Assembly (NCBI GenBank): GCA_947648905.1
Contig: CANSPP010000001.1
Location: forward strand, 90,230 to 122,229
From: an uncultured Clostridium sp.
GTDB lineage: Bacteria; Bacillota; Clostridia; TANB77; CAG-508
DNA: 32,000 bases
Reading direction: 5' to 3'
Both the position numbers and the translations under genes were made by a program. Of the stretch, positions 1 through 21,064 are shown in pieces. Under the pieces are notes generated by a model that was not told where the DNA came from, ran no database searches, and was given only the letters and a program-made list of their open reading frames with translations. How positions within the stretch are numbered: position 1 is the stretch's first letter; the number at the start of each line of letters is the position of its first letter.

Positions 1-740
<740 letters not shown>

Positions 741-843
741 ATTACTTCACCTCTTTATCATTCTTTCCAAATTATATCTTTTTAAACAAATTTTCTGCCA
801 ATGAGGTCGGACCTTTTTGACAGAAAAACATCTCTCATTTATC

Positions 844-873
844 TTGACAATTTTAGGCAAAAAACTATATAAT
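844..873 (+). promoter_or_regulatory. Sigma-A type promoter upstream of the NRPS gene
   Basis: TTGACA (844-849), 18-nt spacer, TATAAT (868-873), about 30 nt upstream of the SD GGAG (893-896). Confidence 0.5.
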
Positions 874-902
874 TTGACTATAAAACTTAATTGGAGAAAA
901 AT

Positions 903-3900
903 ATGAAAAAGGAAGTATATGAATTAACAAACCCACAGAAGAATATATGGGAACTAGAACAAATAAATGGAGATGGAACACCAATAAATCATATTATGTC
1001 AGTGCTAAAGCTTAACAGAAAATTGGATGAAGATTTATTAGTAAAAACTATGAACAAAATTATCGAAGTAAATGATTCTTTCCATTTAAAATTCATTAAG
1101 GATGGCTCAAATTTATATCAATATGTTGATGAGTATCACTATGTACCTATTGAAACCAAGCACTTTGATACAGATGATATTTCCGTTGCTATTGAAGAAT
1201 ATCAAAATTTAGAGCTTTCATTAAACAAGCTTTTTAGTATTTGCCTAGTTTTCACACCTTGTTCTTCTTATGTTTTATATAAATCACATCATATTATTGC
1301 TGACGCTTGGAGTATGTCCCAAGTTGCTGAGCAAATAAAAGATTTTTATGAGAAATTACAAAGGAATGAGAGTGAAGAGGCTTTCGAAAAACCTAGTTAT
1401 CTTCCTTTTATTAATAGAGAAAAAACTTATTATGAGAGTAATAAGTTTAATATAGATGAACAATTTTGGATTGATTATGTAGCAAATATACCTTCTACAA
1501 AGTTATTTCAAAATTCTGATTACCTAAAAAAGAATGGAAAGCGTTATATTCAGCCACTTGACAGCAATTTATTTACTTCTATTTCTACTTATTGTCAAGA
1601 GAATAAGATTACAGAATATTCTTTCTTTTTAGGAATATTGTCTATTTATTTTAGTAAAATTTATAATTTGCAAAAGGTTACATTTGGTACTCCTTTTTTG
1701 AATCGTCAAAAAAGATTAAAGGAGCTTGAATGCACTGGTATGTTTGTCTCAACTTTACCTTTATTGGTAGAAATTGATAATAATGATACCTTTTTATCTT
1801 TGTGCAAAAAAATATCTTCAACAAATATGTCATTATTCAAACATTCTGGATATCCATATCACAAAATACAAGAAACTTATTGCAATACGGCACAAGACAA
1901 TTCTGGTTTATACGAAATTGGATTTTCTTATCAAATTAATAAACAAGAAAATGCTATGGAAAATAATGATTTAGGCGAATGTAGCTGGCTTTTTTCAGGT
2001 CAACAAAATAATCCCCTTACTATACATCTAACAACTTTAAATAATGACAAAGTCTTAAATTATGACTATTTATTTACCTGTTTTACTGAAGCAGAAATTA
2101 AAAAAATGAATTCATTTATTTTACATATAATTTCTCAAGTGTTAAGAGGAAAGTCAAATCTATCTGATATAACACTTTTAACAGATGAAGATGTTTCAAC
2201 TTTAACTGCTTTTAACTTGACAGGAACTATCGAAAATTCAAATGAAACTGTAGTTTCAATTTTTGATAATATTGTTGCAAAATATCCTGATAATATTGCA
2301 GTTTGCTGTGATAATACAGAAATAACTTATTCTGAATTAAATAAAAAAATAAATAATGTAGCAAAAGCATTAATAAATCTAGGAATTACGAAAAATACAC
2401 CAGTTGCCCTATTTTTAGATAAAAGCATAGAGATGATTATAGCTATGTTTGCTGTTCTAAAGGCTGGTGGTTGTTATGTACCGATTTTACCAGACGAGTC
2501 CGCTTCTAGGATTGAGTATATTTTAAATGATTGTAAACCAAAATGTGTTTTAACGCACAAAAATTATGACACAAAAATTCCAACAAAAGCTATTATTATT
2601 AACCTAGACAACTATGGATTTAATGGTTTTTATGATATTAGCGAAAATAGGCCTTCTCCAGAGGACACAGCCTATATAATTTATACATCTGGCTCTACTG
2701 GTAACCCAAAAGGTACTATGGTAATGCATAAAAATATTGCTGGATTAAGAACTTCAATTGAAAAAGATGCAATTTTAAAATCAACTAGTAAAGATGTATC
2801 TATGTCACTTTTAAAATATTCTTTTGATGCATCTGGAATTGATATTTATAGTTCTTTGCTTTTTGGTGGTAAACTTATTTTAGTAAAGAAAGAAGATGAG
2901 TTAAATCCAGAAAAAGTTATTAGAATTATGGAAAAAGAAAAAGTAACAAGGTCTTTTCTAATTCCAAAATGGGTTGAGCATATTGCCTTACAAGATAAAT
3001 TGTTAGATGCAGATTTATCTTCTCTTAGAATTCTTGGAACTGGTGGCGAGACTCTAAAACCATATATTATAGAGAATTTACTTTCTAAATATAGTAACTT
3101 AAAAGTTCTAAATTTATATGGACCAACAGAAACAACAATGTTTACAACTTATAAAGAAGTAAGCGTTTATGAAATAAAAAATAATCATACTTCAATTGGC
3201 AAACCTATTTATGGCTCTCGACTTTTAGTTATTAATTCTAATTTAGAAGTTATGCCAATTGACACAAAAGGAGAATTAGTAGTTTACGAAGACGAAAATT
3301 CTATACAAAATATTGCTAAGGGATATCTAAACTTGCCAGAAGCAACAGAATCTAGATTTGTGCAAATTTATCATCCTATTTTAGGTAAAACTGTTAAAGC
3401 TTATAGAACAGGTGATATAGCAAAGATTAGTAAAGATTTAGATATTGAATTTATTGGTAGAAATGATGATGTTGTAAAGGTTAATGGAGGATACTTGGTT
3501 GCATTAAACGAAGTTCAAAATAAAATTCAAAAATTACTTGGAAATAATTTTGAGGTATTCCCTGTTGCCATACCATACAAGAATACAAAAGCAATTTACT
3601 TATTCTTAACAAAAAAAGAAAAGAATATCAATTTATATAATATAAAAAATTACATTAACAGTAATATTTCATTTTATATGAAACCTAAAAAAATTATTGA
3701 GCTAGATGACTTTCCTCGTAATTCTTCTGGCAAAATAAATAGAAAAGAGTTAGAAAATTTGGCACTTAACTATTTAGAGAAAAATAATAGTAAACGTATT
3801 GCGCCAAAAACAGATTTAGAAATTGATATTTATAACTATGTAAAAGAGTTAGTTGGAATAGATGAGTTCTCTATAACTGATGATTTAATTGAAGATTTAG

Positions 3901-8365: not shown

Positions 8366-8433
8366 TTTTTGGGACAGACCCAAAATTCATCACCTTTTTA
8401 ATTGATAATGTATTTTAGGTCTGTCCCATTTTT
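8366..8433. repeat. REP/REPIN-like inverted doublet between the convergent regulator and tex genes
   Basis: TTTTTGGGACAGACC (core 8371-8380) and GGTCTGTCCCATTTTT (core 8418-8427) are reverse complements separated by 37 nt. Confidence 0.7.
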
Positions 8434-8440
8434 CATCATA

Positions 8441-10624
8441 TTATACTTTCATAGAAAGTCCAACTTTTTGTCTTTCCATATCTATCTTAATAACTTTAAC
8501 TTTTACAACATCTCCTACTGAAACAATCTCAGATGGATTTTTAATAAATTTGTCACTCATTTCTGAAATATGTACAAGTCCATCGTGTTTTACACCAATA
8601 TCTACAAATGCTCCAAAGTCTATTACATTTCTAACTGTTCCTGTTAATATCATTCCTTCTTTTAAGTCTTCTAGTTTTAAAACATCGCTTCTTAAAACTG
8701 GTTTTGGCATATCTTCACGTGGGTCTCTTCCTGGCTTGTTAAGTTCTGCTATAATGTCTGTTAATGTCATTTCTCCTATTTCTAGTTCTTTTGCTGTTTT
8801 GGCAATGTCTATATGTTTTAGTTTATTTCTTAAGTCTTCTAATTTTTCCTTATTTTTTAGGTCGTTTACGTCAAAGCCTATTTCTTTAAGTAATTTTTCT
8901 GTCGCTTCATAACTTTCAGGGTGAACTGCTGTTATTTCTAATGGATTGTCTCCATCAAATATTCTTAGGAACCCTGCGCATTGCTCATATGCTACTTTCC
9001 CTAATTTTGGTACTTTTAGTAATTGCTTTCTATTTTTAAGTTTTCCATTTTCGTCTCTATATTTTACAATATTTTTAGCTATTGTGTTGTTAATTCCTGC
9101 TACATATGAAAGTAGTGATGGTGTTGCAGTATTTACATCTACTCCAACTTTATTAACGCTGTCTTCCACTACGCCTGTTAAACTTTCAGCTAATCTTTTT
9201 TGATTTACGTCGTGTTGATATTGTCCAACTCCAATTGCTTTTGGGTCAATTTTAACCAATTCTGCTAATGGGTCTTGTAATCTTCTTGCTATTGATATTG
9301 CTCCTCTTATTGATACATTTATGTCTGGATATTCTTCTGTTGCAAGCTTAGATGCTGAATAAACTGATGCTCCTGCTTCGCTTACAATTACATAGCATAC
9401 ATCTCTTTTGGTTTCTTTTAACATATCTGCAACAAACATTTCTGATTCTCTAGAAGCTGTACCGTTTCCTATTGCTATCATATCGATTTTATGTTTTTCT
9501 ATTAATTTTAAAAGTTCCTTTTTAGCGTTTTCAACATCATTTTGTGGCGCTGTTGGGTATACAGTTGTATAGTCTAAAACTTTTCCAGTTTCATCTATAA
9601 CAGCAATTTTACATCCTGTTCTATAAGCAGGGTCAAATCCCATAACTGTTTTACCTTTTATTGGAGCTCCTAATAATAATTGTTTTGAATTTTGACCAAA
9701 TACTTTAATTGCCTTTTCTTCTGCTTTTTCAGTTAAATCTGAACGAATTTCTCTTTCAATTGAAGGTTCAATTAATCTTTTAAAACTATCTTCAATCGTT
9801 GTTCTTAACATATCTGTAAATTGTGTTTCTCCCTTGATAACATCTCTTTCAATATATTTTAAGATTTTCTCTTCAGGCTTTTCTAATTTAACTTTTAAGA
9901 AATCTTCCTTTTCTCCACGGTTTATCGCTAAAATTCTGTGGCTTGGTATGTATTTAATTGCTTCTTTATATTCATAATACATTTCATAATTAGATTTTGC
10001 TTCTGGGTCTGCTGCTTTAGTTTCAACTAAACCTTCTCTATAACATTGTCTTTTAATTTCTTTTCTATATTTAGCATTATCAGAGATATTTTCTGCAATA
10101 ATATCTAAAGCACCTGCAATCGCATCTTCCGCAGTCGCTACGACCTTATCCTTATTCTTTTTATCTTCTTCTGATAATTTATCAATATTTACATACTCTT
10201 TAGCAATTTCATAAATATCTCTTGTTTCTTTTTGCTCAATTATAATATTAGCAAGTGGCTCTAACCCCTTAGCTTTAGCAACAGTCGCTCTTGTCTTTTT
10301 CTTTTGCTTGTAAGGTCTATAAATATCCTCTACTTCCGCTAGAGTTTTGCTAAGAGCAACCGCTTTTAAAATTTCATCTGTTAGCTTTCCTTGCTCATCA
10401 ATAGAATTAATAACTTCCTCTTTTCTCTTCTCTAAATTTCTTAGGTATGCTAGCCTGTCGCCTAATTCCCTAAGAGTCTCATCACTTAATCCTCCAGTTA
10501 CTTCTTTTCTATATCTTGCAATAAAAGGTATTGTATTGCCTTCATCAATTAATTTTATTGTATTTTCTACTTGATTCTCTCTTATCTTTAGTTCTTCTGC
10601 TATTGTTTTTATAATTTTATCCAT
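8441..10624 (-). CDS. tex: Tex-like transcription accessory protein (S1 RNA-binding domain at the C-terminus)
   Basis: 727 aa. N-terminus IAEELKIRENQVENTIKLIDEGNTIPFIARYRKE. YqgF/RuvX-like core VMGFDPAYRTGCK, HhH region, C-terminal S1 domain GTVRNVIDFGAFVDIG...GLVHISE. Confidence 0.9.
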   Translation of the reverse strand: MDKIIKTIAEELKIRENQVENTIKLIDEGNTIPFIARYRKEVTGGLSDETLRELGDRLAYLRNLEKRKEEVINSIDEQGKLTDEILKAVALSKTLAEVEDIYRPYKQKKKTRATVAKAKGLEPLANIIIEQKETRDIYEIAKEYVNIDKLSEEDKKNKDKVVATAEDAIAGALDIIAENISDNAKYRKEIKRQCYREGLVETKAADPEAKSNYEMYYEYKEAIKYIPSHRILAINRGEKEDFLKVKLEKPEEKILKYIERDVIKGETQFTDMLRTTIEDSFKRLIEPSIEREIRSDLTEKAEEKAIKVFGQNSKQLLLGAPIKGKTVMGFDPAYRTGCKIAVIDETGKVLDYTTVYPTAPQNDVENAKKELLKLIEKHKIDMIAIGNGTASRESEMFVADMLKETKRDVCYVIVSEAGASVYSASKLATEEYPDINVSIRGAISIARRLQDPLAELVKIDPKAIGVGQYQHDVNQKRLAESLTGVVEDSVNKVGVDVNTATPSLLSYVAGINNTIAKNIVKYRDENGKLKNRKQLLKVPKLGKVAYEQCAGFLRIFDGDNPLEITAVHPESYEATEKLLKEIGFDVNDLKNKEKLEDLRNKLKHIDIAKTAKELEIGEMTLTDIIAELNKPGRDPREDMPKPVLRSDVLKLEDLKEGMILTGTVRNVIDFGAFVDIGVKHDGLVHISEMSDKFIKNPSEIVSVGDVVKVKVIKIDMERQKVGLSMKV

Positions 10625-10647
10625 ATTTAATTTCCTTTCTTTTAAAC

Positions 10648-10684
10648 TTTTTGGGACAGGCCAAAAAAGTTTTGGACATTTTTT
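10648..10684 (+). repeat. REP-like repeat copy flanking the 3' side of the Y1 transposase gene
   Basis: TTTTTGGGACAGGCCAAAAAAGTTTTGGACATTTT (core 10653-10662). It contains the small palindrome CCAAAA-AAG-TTTTGG. It would lie in the tex 5' leader if the promoter at 10714-10741 is real. Confidence 0.7.
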
Positions 10685-10713
10685 ATATTTTTAACTTGTT
10701 TGGTTACTGTCTT

Positions 10714-10741
10714 ATTATATCTTATTTTTTGCAAATTTCAA
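10714..10741 (-). promoter_or_regulatory. Candidate sigma-A promoter for tex
   Basis: On the minus strand: TTGAAA (10741-10736), 16-nt spacer, TATAAT (10719-10714). Confidence 0.45.
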
Positions 10742-10744
10742 GTT

Positions 10745-11506
10745 TTAGATTTCTTTTTTCATAATTTTTTGCATTGAATTTTTAGTCATTTCAAAATATT
10801 CTCTTATAGCTACATATTTTATACTTTTATTATTTTTTAAATATTCTATTAGTTCTTTTAAAATTTGTTTGTTACTAAAAATTTCATATAATTTGCATTC
10901 TTTAATTCTTACAAATTCTTGTATTGATAACAAAATCTTCTCTTTGATGTCATTATCTACATCTAAAAAAGTTATGTTATACTCTATATTTTTGCATATA
11001 TTTTCGTAGTCTTCTTTTGATAATTCTTCTATGAATTTATTTTGAATTAAACTTCTGCAAAAATAGTTGTATGATGAATACTTATAATCTTTACAATTGT
11101 CTACTATTTTCGCTTTTACTGGATTAAAATGAATATACTTAATACATTGAATTAAATATCTTTTTGTTGTAATTGGTTCACTCAGAAATCTATCTCTATA
11201 AACGTGACCAACACGTCCTTCTTCCATATAATTATAATACGCTGCATAACTAAAATTTATTTGATGCATAAATTTTGATAATTCTTCAATTTTTTCTACT
11301 TTGATTAGAAAATGTGCATGGTTGTTCATAATACAAAATGCTATTATTTTAATTTGATATTTTCCTAAATATTTTTTTATTATTTCTATGTATTTTTTTA
11401 TATTTTTTTTCTTTTGAAATATATATTCCTTTCTATGTCCCTGTATTATAACATGAAAAAAGGAACTATTTAAATTATCTCTTGCAATTCTTGGAATTGT
11501 AATCAT
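10745..11506 (-). CDS. Y1 HUH tyrosine transposase of the IS200-like / REP-associated (RayT-like) type, with a C-terminal helical extension
   Basis: FFHVIIQGHRKEYIF (YHV..RG block). HUH motif MNNHAHFLI (plus-strand 11312-11320). RDRFLSEP. Catalytic Tyr block KYIHFNPVKAKIV (Tyr codon about 11135-11137). KYSSYNYF. At 253 aa it is longer than typical IS200 TnpA, as I recall it (about 130-150 aa). GGAG abuts the ATG, so initiation context is poor. Confidence 0.8.
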   Translation of the reverse strand: MITIPRIARDNLNSSFFHVIIQGHRKEYIFQKKKNIKKYIEIIKKYLGKYQIKIIAFCIMNNHAHFLIKVEKIEELSKFMHQINFSYAAYYNYMEEGRVGHVYRDRFLSEPITTKRYLIQCIKYIHFNPVKAKIVDNCKDYKYSSYNYFCRSLIQNKFIEELSKEDYENICKNIEYNITFLDVDNDIKEKILLSIQEFVRIKECKLYEIFSNKQILKELIEYLKNNKSIKYVAIREYFEMTKNSMQKIMKKEI

Positions 11507-11540
11507 CTCCTTTTTTATTTAGCCCCTATTTTTATATTTT

Positions 11541-11573
11541 TATCCAAAACTTTTTTGCATGTCCCAAAACGTC
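11541..11573 (-). repeat. REP-like repeat copy flanking the 5' side of the Y1 transposase gene, inverted relative to 10648-10684
   Basis: The reverse complement reads GACGTTTTGGGACATGCAAAAAAGTTTTGGATA. It matches the 10648-10684 copy except for GGCC versus TGC and one C/T change. It abuts the stop codon of the HTH gene. Confidence 0.7.
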
Positions 11574-11812
11574 TATTTTATTTTATTTGGAATATAGTCT
11601 ATAATATCTGTTATTGTGCATTCCAAATAGTCACATAATCTTGCTATCACAAATATATCAAACCTCACTAATTCCCCTGTTATTATACGTTTTAAAACTT
11701 TAAAATCTGTATTTGTATCTCTCATCAACTTATTTATGCTGATTTTCCTATCTTTCAATAAATCTTCTAACTTAAATAGATATACTCCCTTTTCTATATT
11801 TACCCTAATCAT
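11573..11812 (-). CDS. Small XRE/YozG-like helix-turn-helix transcriptional regulator
   Basis: 79 aa. LEDLLKDRKISINKLMRDTNTDFKVLKRIITGE...IARLCDYLECTITDIIDY fits the short HTH family usually paired with a small membrane protein. SD GGAGA lies 6 nt upstream of the ATG. Confidence 0.8.
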   Translation of the reverse strand: MIRVNIEKGVYLFKLEDLLKDRKISINKLMRDTNTDFKVLKRIITGELVRFDIFVIARLCDYLECTITDIIDYIPNKIK

Positions 11813-11860: not shown

Positions 11861-11889
11861 TTGACTATTGGTTATATAACCAGTATAAT
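11861..11889 (+). promoter_or_regulatory. Consensus promoter with an embedded palindromic operator, driving the small membrane-protein gene
   Basis: TTGACT (11861-11866), 17-nt spacer, TATAAT (11884-11889). The spacer contains the perfect 14-bp palindrome TGGTTATATAACCA (11869-11882). Confidence 0.6.
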
Positions 11890-11953
11890 AACTATAGCAT
11901 TAATTATATTTGCTTATTTTATTAATTTTTTACAAATGAAAGGGGGATTCACA

Positions 11954-12265
11954 ATGAATGAAGATAAAGCTTTTAGCAATGCTAAATGGTTTGCTATAGG
12001 ATTACTTGTTTTGGCTATAATTGTTTTAATTTTTAATTTTGTAGCTTCTCCAAGTCAAAATATTATTAAAATTGTATCATACAGCATTCAAATTATTCTG
12101 TTGTTAGCAACTGCTATTGGATGTGGCAAAAAAATGATATATGGTCCTGTTTGTGGAATTGTTGTTTCTATTTTGTTAATAATTTCACTTGACATAATTT
12201 CTTTGATTTTTGGTATACTTTATTTAATTGATTGTATAAAATTAGTTAAATTTATAAAAAATTAA
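11954..12265 (+). CDS. Small integral membrane protein (about 4 TM helices), divergent partner of the HTH regulator
   Basis: SD AGGGGG (11941-11946) lies 7 nt upstream of the ATG at 11954. The track's TTG at 11861 coincides with the -35 box, so the long form is unlikely. The sequence is hydrophobic throughout. Confidence 0.6.
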   Translation: MNEDKAFSNAKWFAIGLLVLAIIVLIFNFVASPSQNIIKIVSYSIQIILLLATAIGCGKKMIYGPVCGIVVSILLIISLDIISLIFGILYLIDCIKLVKFIKN

Positions 12266-12293
12266 AAATTTTGATTTAAATTTTTTGGTAAAT

Positions 12294-12350
12294 TTTTTGG
12301 GACAGGCCAGAAACGTCCGCTAATAAAACTTTTTTGGTCTGTCCCAAAAA
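12294..12350. repeat. REP/REPIN-like inverted doublet between the convergent membrane-protein and ABC-F genes
   Basis: TTTTTTGGGACAGGCC (core 12299-12308) and GGTCTGTCCCAAAAA (core 12336-12345) are separated by 27 nt. The spacer carries GAAACGTCC, the reverse complement of the GGACGTTTC module seen at 14012 and 19882. Confidence 0.7.
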
Positions 12351-13972: not shown

Positions 13973-14001
13973 ATTATACACTATTTTTCCTTATTTTTCA
14001 A
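13973..14001 (-). promoter_or_regulatory. Sigma-A promoter for the ABC-F gene
   Basis: On the minus strand: TTGAAA (14001-13996), 17-nt spacer, TATAAT (13978-13973). Confidence 0.5.
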
Positions 14002-14040
14002 GTGTCCAATTGGGGACGTTTCTTTCTTGGACATTTTTAA
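14002..14040. repeat. Composite repeat-family module (TGTCCAA / GGGGACGTTTC / TTGGACA hairpin)
   Basis: TGTCCAA (14004-14010) and TTGGACA (14028-14034) are inverted and enclose GGGGACGTTTC (14012-22). The TTGGACATTTTT tail matches the 10648-10684 copy. Confidence 0.5.
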
Positions 14041-14085
14041 TGGAGGCTTTTGAGTGACAAATCAAAAAATATTTATAAGTGGTGC

Positions 14086-14106
14086 ATTTTAGGTCTGTCC
14101 CAAAAA
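14086..14106 (-). repeat. Single REP-like copy in the ABC-F/capA divergent spacer
   Basis: ATTTTAGGTCTGTCCCA (core 14092-14101) is identical over 17 nt to the copy at 8412-8428. Confidence 0.65.
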
Positions 14107-14170
14107 ATCTTACTTGAATTTTGTCGAATTTTGTGATATTTTGTTATTATAAAAAATGGGGTGATTTATT

Positions 14171-15504: not shown

Positions 15505-15528
15505 TTTTATTGTACCTTTTGTGTATAT

Positions 15529-15604
15529 GGGTTATTAGCTCAGTTGGTAGAGCAGCGGACTCTTAATCCGAAGGTCCGGGGTTCGACCCCCCGATGACCC
15601 ACCA
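15529..15604 (+). tRNA. tRNA-Lys (anticodon CTT), CCA encoded
   Basis: Hand-folded cloverleaf: acceptor GGGTTAT/ATGACCC, D arm GCTC..GAGC, anticodon loop CTCTTAA, T arm CGGGG-TTCGACC-CCCCG, 3' ACCA. Confidence 0.9.
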
Positions 15605-15616
15605 ATTAAATATATT

Positions 15617-20751: not shown

Positions 20752-20828
20752 TGGAGCCACTTCCCAGATTCGAACTGGGGACCCCCGCATTACAAGTGCG
20801 GTGCTCTGGCCAACTGAGCTAAAGTGGC
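20752..20828 (-). tRNA. tRNA-Thr (anticodon TGT), CCA encoded
   Basis: The reverse complement GCCACTTTAGCTCAGTTGGCCAGAGCACCGCACTTGTAATGCGGGGGTCCCCAGTTCGAATCTGGGAAGTGGCTCCA folds as a cloverleaf with anticodon loop CTTGTAA. Confidence 0.9.
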
Positions 20829-20840
20829 AATTATTTAATT

Positions 20841-20915
20841 TGGTGACCCGTACGGGAATCGAACCCATGTCTCCGCCGTGAAAGGGCGGTGTCTTAACCG
20901 CTTGACCAACGGGCC
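20841..20915 (-). tRNA. tRNA-Glu (anticodon TTC), CCA encoded
   Basis: The reverse complement GGCCCGTTGGTCAAGCGGTTAAGACACCGCCCTTTCACGGCGG... has anticodon loop CTTTCAC and T loop TTCGATT. Confidence 0.9.
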
Positions 20916-20923
20916 TTATATAT

Positions 20924-20958
20924 AAAGAACTAAATAATGTTGCATTATTTAGTTCTTT
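20924..20958 (-). other. Perfect 16-bp hairpin in the tRNA-Lys/tRNA-Glu spacer
   Basis: AAAGAACTAAATAATG (20924-39), loop TTG, CATTATTTAGTTCTTT (20943-58). Confidence 0.6.
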
Positions 20959-21034
20959 TGGTGAGCTATCCGCGACTCGAACGCGGGACAACTTGATTAA
21001 AAGTCAAGTGCTCTACCACCTGAGCTAATAGCCC
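20959..21034 (-). tRNA. tRNA-Lys (anticodon TTT), CCA encoded
   Basis: The reverse complement GGGCTATTAGCTCAGGTGGTAGAGCACTTGACTTTTAATCAAGTTGTCCCGCGTTCGAGTCGCGGATAGCTCACCA has anticodon loop CTTTTAA. Confidence 0.9.
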
Positions 21035-21064
21035 ACATAACTGTGATACTCACAACGCCTTTAT

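Follow-up and report, generated by a model that had tools for sequence, protein, structure and literature searches.

The window analyzed here, a 32,000-nucleotide stretch of an uncultured Clostridium sp. genome (GenBank assembly GCA_947648905.1, contig CANSPP010000001.1, positions 90,230 to 122,229; base composition 27.7% G+C), probably harbors a REPtron/TIRtron-type system, in which a TIRYT-class Y1 HUH endonuclease is encoded at a single locus between two inverted cognate hairpins, with further hairpin copies residing in spacers. To our knowledge, the biology of repetitive extragenic palindromes (REPs) and of REP-associated tyrosine transposases (RAYTs) rests almost entirely on Proteobacteria. 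The system is real and its class is known but poorly characterized. Direct support exists for the protein class, the catalytic residues, the fold, the layout, the covariation of the hairpins, the agreement between repeat type and Y1 allele, the fixed locus, and purifying selection. As a clear-cut Gram-positive example, the locus combines a hairpin of defined design (its GGGAC loop conserved, its stem free to vary) with natural allele-repeat pairs for specificity swaps and with close genomes differing in the allele, so that two questions become testable, namely the recognition of the repeat by the Y1 enzyme and the turnover of repeat populations. Its main value lies in being a Gram-positive model that is tractable and comes with natural variants of specificity. 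The gene, its product, and the two adjacent genes are as follows:

10745..11506, minus strand: Y1 HUH nuclease gene (TIRYT / RAYT-like type), 253 residues
Residues ~10-146 of the product: catalytic HUH/Tyr domain with H63, H65, and Y124
Residues ~150-253 of the product: conserved C-terminal helical domain, probably helix-turn-helix (HTH)
8441..10624, minus strand: tex, the neighbor on the 3' side of the Y1 gene
11573..11812, minus strand: HTH_26 gene, 79 residues, the neighbor on the 5' side of the Y1 gene

The initial annotation had read the 253-residue product as a protein with Y1 hallmarks, and all three motifs it quoted are present: FFHVIIQG at residues 16-23, NHAHFLI at residues 62-68, and KYIHFNPV at residues 123-130. 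The hidden Markov model (HMM) search it had called for, with Pfam Y1_Tnp (PF01797), matches residues 17-126 at 47 bits (cut-off 23), which places the protein in the Y1 HUH endonuclease superfamily. We found about 1,100 homologs of roughly 250 residues, in which conservation spans the whole protein; H63, H65, and Y124 as well as several C-terminal positions are invariant among the 43 homologs aligned. There is no tnpB-like gene beside the Y1 gene, in agreement with the initial annotation, the neighbors being tex and the HTH_26 gene.

A search of the PDB with the single sequence returned no match, whereas the family profile identified 4ER8, the structure of E. coli TnpA-REP in complex with a REP hairpin (E=2e-5), followed at a distance by ISDra2 TnpA (0.46). 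The AlphaFold model of the protein (pLDDT 86.6) likewise has 4ER8 as its top fold match (E=7.8e-6, TM-score normalized by target length 0.67), followed by the TnpA proteins of IS608 and ISDra2. Among NCBIfam models, REP_Tyr_transpos (NF047646) is by far the top match with 75.5 bits (cut-off 80), and the IS200 model (NF033573) reaches 20.6 bits against its cut-off of 55, so that the protein does not fall inside the canonical IS200 TnpA group, membership in which the initial annotation had named as fatal to its reading. We compared the protein by BLASTP and with the family HMM to the sequences of Additional file 5 of PMC3733652. The published TIRYT proteins score 69-109 bits, with 28-35% identity over the Y1 domain, and the window protein groups with them; canonical RAYTs score 30-45 bits, and the RAYT references (eco b228, Pseudomonas, Stenotrophomonas) all lie below the TIRYTs. 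Judged by these sequence comparisons, the protein belongs to the TIRYT / TnpA-Y1 subclass 2.1 branch and not to the canonical RAYTs of GTAG-tagged REPs. The proposed RAYT-like system thus stands in its REPtron layout, a gene between inverted copies of a dispersed repeat, and in its nearest structure, TnpA-REP, and has to be revised as to the branch of the enzyme. The C-terminal ~100 residues gave weak matches to HTH_24, HTH_11, and HTH_26 in up to 10 of the 43 members and a weak match to a winged-helix protein (S25); among the listed matches of this domain, which are weak overall, Bac_DnaA_C, HTH_23, and HTH_28 do not occur.

Among the Y1 subclasses, that of the TIRYT / subclass 2.1 proteins ranks second in size. 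The names TIRYT and TIRtron were introduced for RAYT-like genes lying between inverted repeats that contain the motif GGGGWSAS; some of these repeat families are moderately abundant, as dimers or clusters (Di Nocera, De Gregorio and Rocco 2013, PMC3733652). A later study equates TIRYTs with TnpA-Y1 subclass 2.1, whose members are long and end in an HTH-like domain, and reports finding no REP-like sequences close to subclass 2.1 genes (Quentin et al. 2018, PMC6006769). The window locus shares with TIRtrons the long Y1 protein with a C-terminal extension, the inverted GGGGWSAS-type flanks, and the dimers or clusters of repeats, and its protein has the TIRYT signature blocks C-[IL]-M-x-N-H-x-H and Y-[KW]-x-S-S-Y. 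The flank motif of the window, TGGGACAG, agrees with GGGGWSAS at seven of eight positions, and that of some homologs, GGGGACGG or GGGGACAG, at all eight. Unlike the published TIRYTs, the system resides in an uncultured low-GC Clostridia lineage, occupies a fixed slot between an ABC-F gene and tex with sharply divergent alleles, and encodes a C-terminal domain without detectable similarity to the aligned TIRYT C-termini. Moreover, the published description of TIRs has the words 'rather than typical secondary structures' (PMC3733652), whereas the repeats described here are hairpins with covarying stems and a conserved loop.

The following repeat copies are found in the window:

10644..10678, plus strand: type A repeat on the 3' side of the Y1 gene, a hairpin at 10644-10672 followed by a TTGGACA tail
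11541..11575, minus strand: degenerate repeat on the 5' side of the Y1 gene, GGGACATGC, with one deletion and a weak hairpin
12293..12350: inverted (REPIN-like) doublet 15 nt beyond the ABC-F stop codon
8366..8433: inverted doublet of type B, GGGACAGACC, its stems decayed, in the spacer that separates tex from the convergent response-regulator gene
14080..14109, minus strand: single type B copy, GATTTTTTGGGACAGACCTAAAATGCACC, upstream of ABC-F
14000..14036: probable relic partner copy, GTGTCCAATTGGGGACG...TTGGACA, which aligns to the second copy of a doublet at the homologous locus L135

The repeat unit is an imperfect palindrome that forms a hairpin of AAACTTTTT, a GGGACAGG loop, and CCAAAAAAGTTT. 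The core TTTTGGGACAGRCC, with up to two mismatches, matches six times in the window against 0.18 expected, a number reached by 0 of 100 dinucleotide shuffles, at 8367+, 10649+, 11556-, 12295+, 12336-, and 14092-; a seventh, degenerate copy at 8412-8433 is the partner of the 8367+ site. All copies fall within five successive spacers of the 8.3-14.1 kb stretch, with none in the remaining 26 kb of the window. The two repeats flanking the Y1 gene, which the initial annotation had located correctly, lie in inverted orientation and share about 27 of 30 positions, with a single gap (10649-10678 on the plus strand, TTTTGGGACAGGCCAAAAAAGTTTTGGACA; 11542-11573 as reverse complement, GACGTTTTGGGACATGCAAAAAAGTTTTGGAT). 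The 3' copy sits between the Y1 stop codon and the start of tex (10624), and the end of the 5' copy overlaps the HTH_26 stop codon. The hairpin at the 3' side exceeds the small CCAAAA/TTTTGG one that had been assigned to both flanks, running AAACTTTTT...AAAAAGTTT at 10644-10672 (single-stranded DNA (ssDNA) fold of -7.3 kcal/mol, z -3.25); the upstream copy folds poorly. Both doublets form long hairpins, of -16.1 kcal/mol (z -5.7) at 12293-12350 and -14.3 kcal/mol (z -5.0) at 8366-8433. The copies crowd the spacers beside the Y1 gene, seven within 5.8 kb in the window and likewise at 3.1-9.5 kb in L135 and 9.3-13.1 kb in the homologous locus L132, which suggests local (cis-proximal) spreading. 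An Rfam scan of the window matched four tRNAs and nothing else, so the repeat is no curated RNA family. Intrinsic-terminator-like sites number two against 1.2 expected by chance, and we accordingly do not read the repeats as terminators.

We scanned one genome per GTDB species with the pattern TTTGGGACAGRCCNAAAA; the counts cover the matches listed only and are lower bounds. Among these, unrelated taxa show lone scattered sites, and many 8-kb blocks with matches fall in four metagenome-assembled genomes (MAGs) of uncultured Clostridia:

CATGLK01: at least 23 blocks, at least 49 cores, on at least 12 contigs
CAOPES01: at least 7 blocks, at least 16 cores
CASSLW01: at least 9 blocks, at least 9 cores
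CANBES01: at least 6 blocks, at least 8 cores

CATGLK01, the nearest among the matches listed, is a congener of the source genome with about 86% DNA identity over window positions 1-3121. The statistics were drawn from the 88 listed cores of the window and the four MAGs, whose consensus is aaacTTTTTGGGACAGgCCaAAAAagt, with no GTAG at the foot of the hairpin. Seventy-five of the 88 cores lie outside long open reading frames (ORFs). Three arrangements occur: singles, inverted doublets at 37 nt, and direct arrays at 36 nt. Neighbors in the same orientation are 36 nt apart in 10 of 12 pairs, and inverted neighbors are exactly 37 nt apart in nine pairs, all of them plus then minus, with zero pairs in the opposite order. 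Such recurrent inverted repeats at a fixed short spacing, together with doublet folds of z ~-5 to -5.7, are what characterizes REPINs. The copies in related MAGs and the over-representation in the window substantiate the earlier claim that the flanks belong to a dispersed family; the alternative, that flanking and dispersed repeats are unrelated, does not apply. The repeat-bearing MAG blocks do not cover the ABC-F/tex locus, and the Y1 relative caught in them is a 41%-identical paralog. This 246-residue protein (identity over the Y1 domain) is encoded between dnaB and tilS at 3005-5000 of L044 (CATGLK010000001.1) and has the same two-domain architecture as the window protein. Other GGGAC-type repeats, GGGACGGACC... 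and GGGACACTCC, lie upstream of it, and the adjacent tilS ORF holds a tandem NCQKGPS(L/P)VA segment resembling in-frame repeat copies.

Homologs with 47-63% protein identity occupy the same slot, in the order ABC-F, Y1, tex, in other species, and a response-regulator gene and a histidine kinase gene follow downstream wherever the contig reaches far enough. We found no relative without a Y1 gene at the ABC-F/tex slot. Every syntenic homolog checked has inverted flanking hairpins that keep the GGGAC[AG] loop, whereas the stems are lineage-specific and complementary, as in the pairs GGGTGTTTTT / AAAAACACCC, CTGTTTTTT / AAAAAACAG, ATGTTGTTTTT / AAAAACAACAT, CATGATTTT / AAAATCATG, and GATGTTTTTT / AAAAAACATC. 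Covariation was scored on all 18 flanking copies from nine loci, unfiltered, with the partner slid by 1-3 columns as the control; copies from the same locus are not independent of each other, and the set comprises at least six stem types. Of the stem cells, 82% are paired, compared with 52-58% when the partner is slid, the covariation score is 0.34 as opposed to 0.07-0.15, and eight pairs changed on both sides against 5-7. A stem that is arbitrary in sequence and yet preserved in pairing points to selection on a folded single strand rather than on a double-stranded operator. A metagenome scan added 80 further loci. Relatives down to about 30% identity have inverted flanks of the form stem-GGGGACGG-loop-stem with GGGGAC[GA]G, which corresponds to the TIRYT motif GGGGWSAS, e.g., GTGTCAAGGGGACGGTTCTCTTGACAC and GGCAGGCAAGGGGACGGTTCTGTTGCCTGC. 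The metagenome relatives lie mostly outside the ABC-F/tex context, and tblastn finds those neighbors only in L135 and L136.

The dispersed copies share their type with the Y1 flanks of their own genome: L135 has eight copies of a GGGTG type within 10.7 kb, and L132 has four dispersed copies of its own CATGA type. In the window, L135, and L132, the spacer between tex and the response-regulator gene holds a doublet of the local type; L125 and L129 have none there. Repeat dispersal is lineage-specific.

The exact Y1 protein occurs in 81 blocks of the assembly collection, and in every contig shown the context is ABC-F, small ORF, HTH_26, Y1. The copy number of the gene-plus-ends unit was judged indirectly, from these contig contexts and from synteny across species; on both counts the numerous near-identical copies of the whole unit that would mark an ordinary insertion sequence (IS) were not seen. 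Ten Logan contigs from independent samples contain the exact protein, and all ten stop inside the repeat at 10648-10673, presumably because a multi-copy 30-mer breaks short-read assembly; on the practical side, such repeats fragment short-read assemblies of gut Clostridia. The Y1 family gave 16 weak partial matches in 72,556 plasmid records and one match in phages. The dN/dS values against the syntenic homologs indicate that the Y1 gene is functional but evolves fast, above both of its neighbors:

Y1 gene: dN/dS 0.22-0.33
tex: dN/dS 0.05-0.15
ABC-F gene: dN/dS 0.01-0.12

The protein identities to the window at two homologous loci are:

L215 (P0004 allele): Y1 63%, Tex 98%, ABC-F off the contig
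L135: Y1 57%, Tex 94%, ABC-F 99%

Between the window and L215, the DNA identity of tex is about 95% overall and mostly 87-100% along the gene; at the repeat near 10648 it declines, and the Y1 gene shows ~58-88%. Simple vertical descent of the Y1 gene was considered and rejected by this comparison. The P0002 allele (84% identical) is accompanied by a type A repeat like that of the window, and the P0004 allele (63%) by another type, ATGCATTTT-GGGAC(A/G)G(T/A)CC-TAAAATGCAT in the flanks of L215, which resembles the window type B copies at 8366 and 14092; the copy at 14080-14109, in particular, looks like the flanking repeats of a P0004-type allele. On the few loci available, the simplest reading of these sequences is that the Y1-plus-hairpin cassette was replaced, or diverged very fast, at a fixed slot, and that older repeat types are probably decaying in place at the window locus. 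The term 'host-domesticated' used in the initial annotation has to be narrowed to a fixed locus with a variable allele, as the cassette differs sharply between near-identical backbones. The ~95%-identical tex beside a 63%-identical Y1 protein, the hairpins peculiar to each allele, and the decaying type B copies (8366-8433, 14080-14109) raise the possibility, which we put forward tentatively and hold to be rather doubtful, that a Y1 gene together with its cognate hairpin is a specificity cassette that can be exchanged while its chromosomal slot stays fixed. If true, nuclease and repeat would have been replaced repeatedly or have co-evolved rapidly, giving successive waves of repeats, unlike the slow vertical picture of REPIN-RAYT systems.

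The binding, cleavage, and joining of ssDNA and the dispersal of repeats by the Y1 protein are inferred by analogy with TnpA-REP (PMC3479197, PMC8266576) and IS608. The N-terminal HUH/Tyr domain would bind the repeat as an ssDNA hairpin, for example on the lagging-strand template, reading GGGAC(A/G)G at the 5' side of the loop, with the stem providing shape only. Using Tyr124 and a metal on His63/His65, the enzyme would cut and rejoin the DNA, and this reaction could move or copy units of ~36 nt to give singles, 37-nt inverted doublets, and 36-nt direct arrays. The C-terminal helical (probably HTH) domain might add DNA binding or dimerization. The Y1 gene presumably does not move itself, because its two flanks are on different strands and the upstream copy is degenerate. 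The nick may be placed inside the loop at the invariant GGGAC, as at rolling-circle Rep origins, in contrast to a nick outside the hairpin in TnpA-REP and IS608.

TnpA-REP of E. coli (Ton-Hoang et al. 2012; 4ER8, PMC3479197), the closest solved structure by both profile and fold, resembles the window system in its REP-BIME organization: a single-copy Y1 gene, inverted flanks from a dispersed extragenic palindrome, and clusters alternating in orientation. However, the identity is ~16-20%, the window protein has 253 residues and an extra domain compared with 165 residues, and the window repeat has its conserved motif in the loop and lacks a GTAG tag at the foot of the hairpin. The REPIN-RAYT systems described in Pseudomonas and Enterobacteria (Bertels and Rainey 2011, PMC3116915; PMC5581495) are alike in the inverted doublets at a fixed spacing (37 nt here), the repeat population specific to the lineage, the single gene locus, and a family essentially off plasmids. 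They differ in the Y1 branch, in that direct 36-nt arrays are here as common as inverted doublets, and in their slow, congruent vertical evolution, as the Y1 allele of the window is uncoupled from its host (63% beside a 98%-identical Tex). 'Group 1' proteins have been found also in Clostridia (Bertels et al. 2017, PMC5581495). With the TnpA proteins of IS200/IS605 elements (IS608, ISDra2), the window protein shares the HUH/Y1 fold and an expected recognition of hairpins, but it is a weak sequence match, and its gene has no tnpB, lies between inverted ends in fixed synteny, and is not multi-copy.

Several observations weigh against a REPtron/TIRtron-type system as described here. The match to the RAYT model NF047646 remains just under its cut-off, the GTAG tag of characterized REPs is missing from the repeat, and the position of the conserved motif, in the hairpin loop, differs from that in the complexes of TnpA-REP and IS608. 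The 5' flanking copy is degenerate and folds poorly (z -1.6). L125, L129, and L134 show just the two flanking copies in 12-20 kb. The divergence of the Y1 protein is uncoupled from that of the host, which complicates the picture of a vertically inherited domesticated gene, and the single-copy status of the Y1 unit in the source genome rests indirectly on contig contexts. We also know of no biochemical evidence for TIRYT / subclass 2.1 proteins.

It is extremely unlikely that the locus represents an active IS200/IS605-family IS, whose TnpA would move the whole 0.9-kb unit and whose solo ends or MITE-like derivatives would be the short repeats. The Y1_Tnp domain, the hairpins at both ends, and the many homologs on ~1-kb contigs, on which repeated elements often lie, would fit such an element. 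The IS200 score is, however, far below the cut-off, and both profile and fold are nearer to TnpA-REP. The exact protein is found in one context in all contigs shown, the same slot is filled in species with Y1 proteins of 47-63% identity, and plasmids and phages hardly carry the family. Whereas recognition of IS200/IS605 ends takes place on a single strand, the two end hairpins here are inverted and occupy opposite strands, and it is the 30-nt repeat, rather than a repeated gene, in which the short contigs break. Coincidence is another explanation that we regard as very unlikely, i.e., generic intergenic palindromes of A+T-rich Clostridia, unrelated to the protein, beside a relic transposase gene. 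The low G+C content makes palindromes of T-runs and A-runs easy, and the upstream flank is degenerate, but the core is strongly over-represented with respect to dinucleotide shuffles, the G-rich GGGAC[AG] loop is kept at both flanks over a wide divergence and also in G+C-richer contexts, and the repeat type follows the Y1 allele. Nor is the gene a relic, as it is intact with invariant catalytic residues and a dN/dS of 0.2-0.3.

More serious, yet still unlikely, is a domesticated hairpin-binding nuclease that has a host role at the repeats (at fork structures, or in mRNA or transcription of, e.g., tex) and is not the spreading agent, the repeats having spread by another route or being kept by selection. 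The long, conserved residence beside tex and ABC-F, the purifying selection on the Y1 gene, and the presence of two flanking copies alone in several relatives are compatible with such a role. Furthermore, with a promoter-like site (10741-10714) on one side and the tex start on the other, the 3' repeat would belong to the tex leader, and doublets lie between convergent genes, where terminators sit. On the other hand, the hairpins lack the G+C-rich stem and T-run of terminators, and terminator-like sites are at chance level. Similar flanking hairpins occur in unrelated contexts (L130/L131 and many metagenome loci); that they follow the Y1 relatives there argues for a link of the protein to the repeat and not to tex. 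The quantized arrays (36/37 nt) and the bursts of the cognate type in particular lineages resemble the outcome of a site-specific DNA reaction.

Two further sequence features accompany the Y1 gene:

11522..11527, minus strand: AGGGGC motif ~20 nt 5' of the Y1 start codon, behind a TAAAAT-like box
10714-10741, minus strand: sigma-70-like site TTGAAA-16-TATAAT (11/12) just past the Y1 stop codon

A motif A(T)AGGGG(C/T) is found 20-35 nt 5' of the Y1 start in the window, L125, L129, L130, L132, L134, L138, L149, and L044, usually right behind a TAxAAT-like box, and distant relatives have it too. Its candidate roles are those of a G+C-rich promoter discriminator and of a binding or autoregulatory site. 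The sigma-70-like site would place the 3' hairpin (10644-10672) in the 5' leader of tex, beside its ribosome-binding site; promoter-like sites in this A+T-rich region are at chance level (37 found, 34 expected). The GGAG noticed earlier, which might lower expression as the initial annotation proposed, does abut the ATG of the Y1 gene (11504-11512), and GGAG or GAG/TGAG touching the ATG was seen in several homologous genes as well (L129, L130, L132), which makes the spacing of the ribosome-binding site a conserved feature of the gene and no accident of the window copy.

The HTH_26 gene and a 134-residue membrane-like ORF (11861..12265, plus strand) between ABC-F and Y1 occur only in this lineage; in relatives, the upstream hairpin lies directly behind the ABC-F stop codon. 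L132, L133, and L217 carry other inserts at the 5' hairpin region, among them a dCMP-deaminase gene or a fragment of one in L133 and L217, and with such differing inserts the region looks like a hot spot of insertion or rearrangement. At 16459-17685 of L134, a Transposase_mut (IS256-type) gene and several small ORFs lie between tex and the response-regulator gene. The four tRNA genes of the window are located at 15529-15601 (plus strand) and 20755-21034 (minus strand), and an 82-nt inverted repeat, I1 (15524-15605, 20958-21039), corresponds to two similar tRNA genes on opposite strands.

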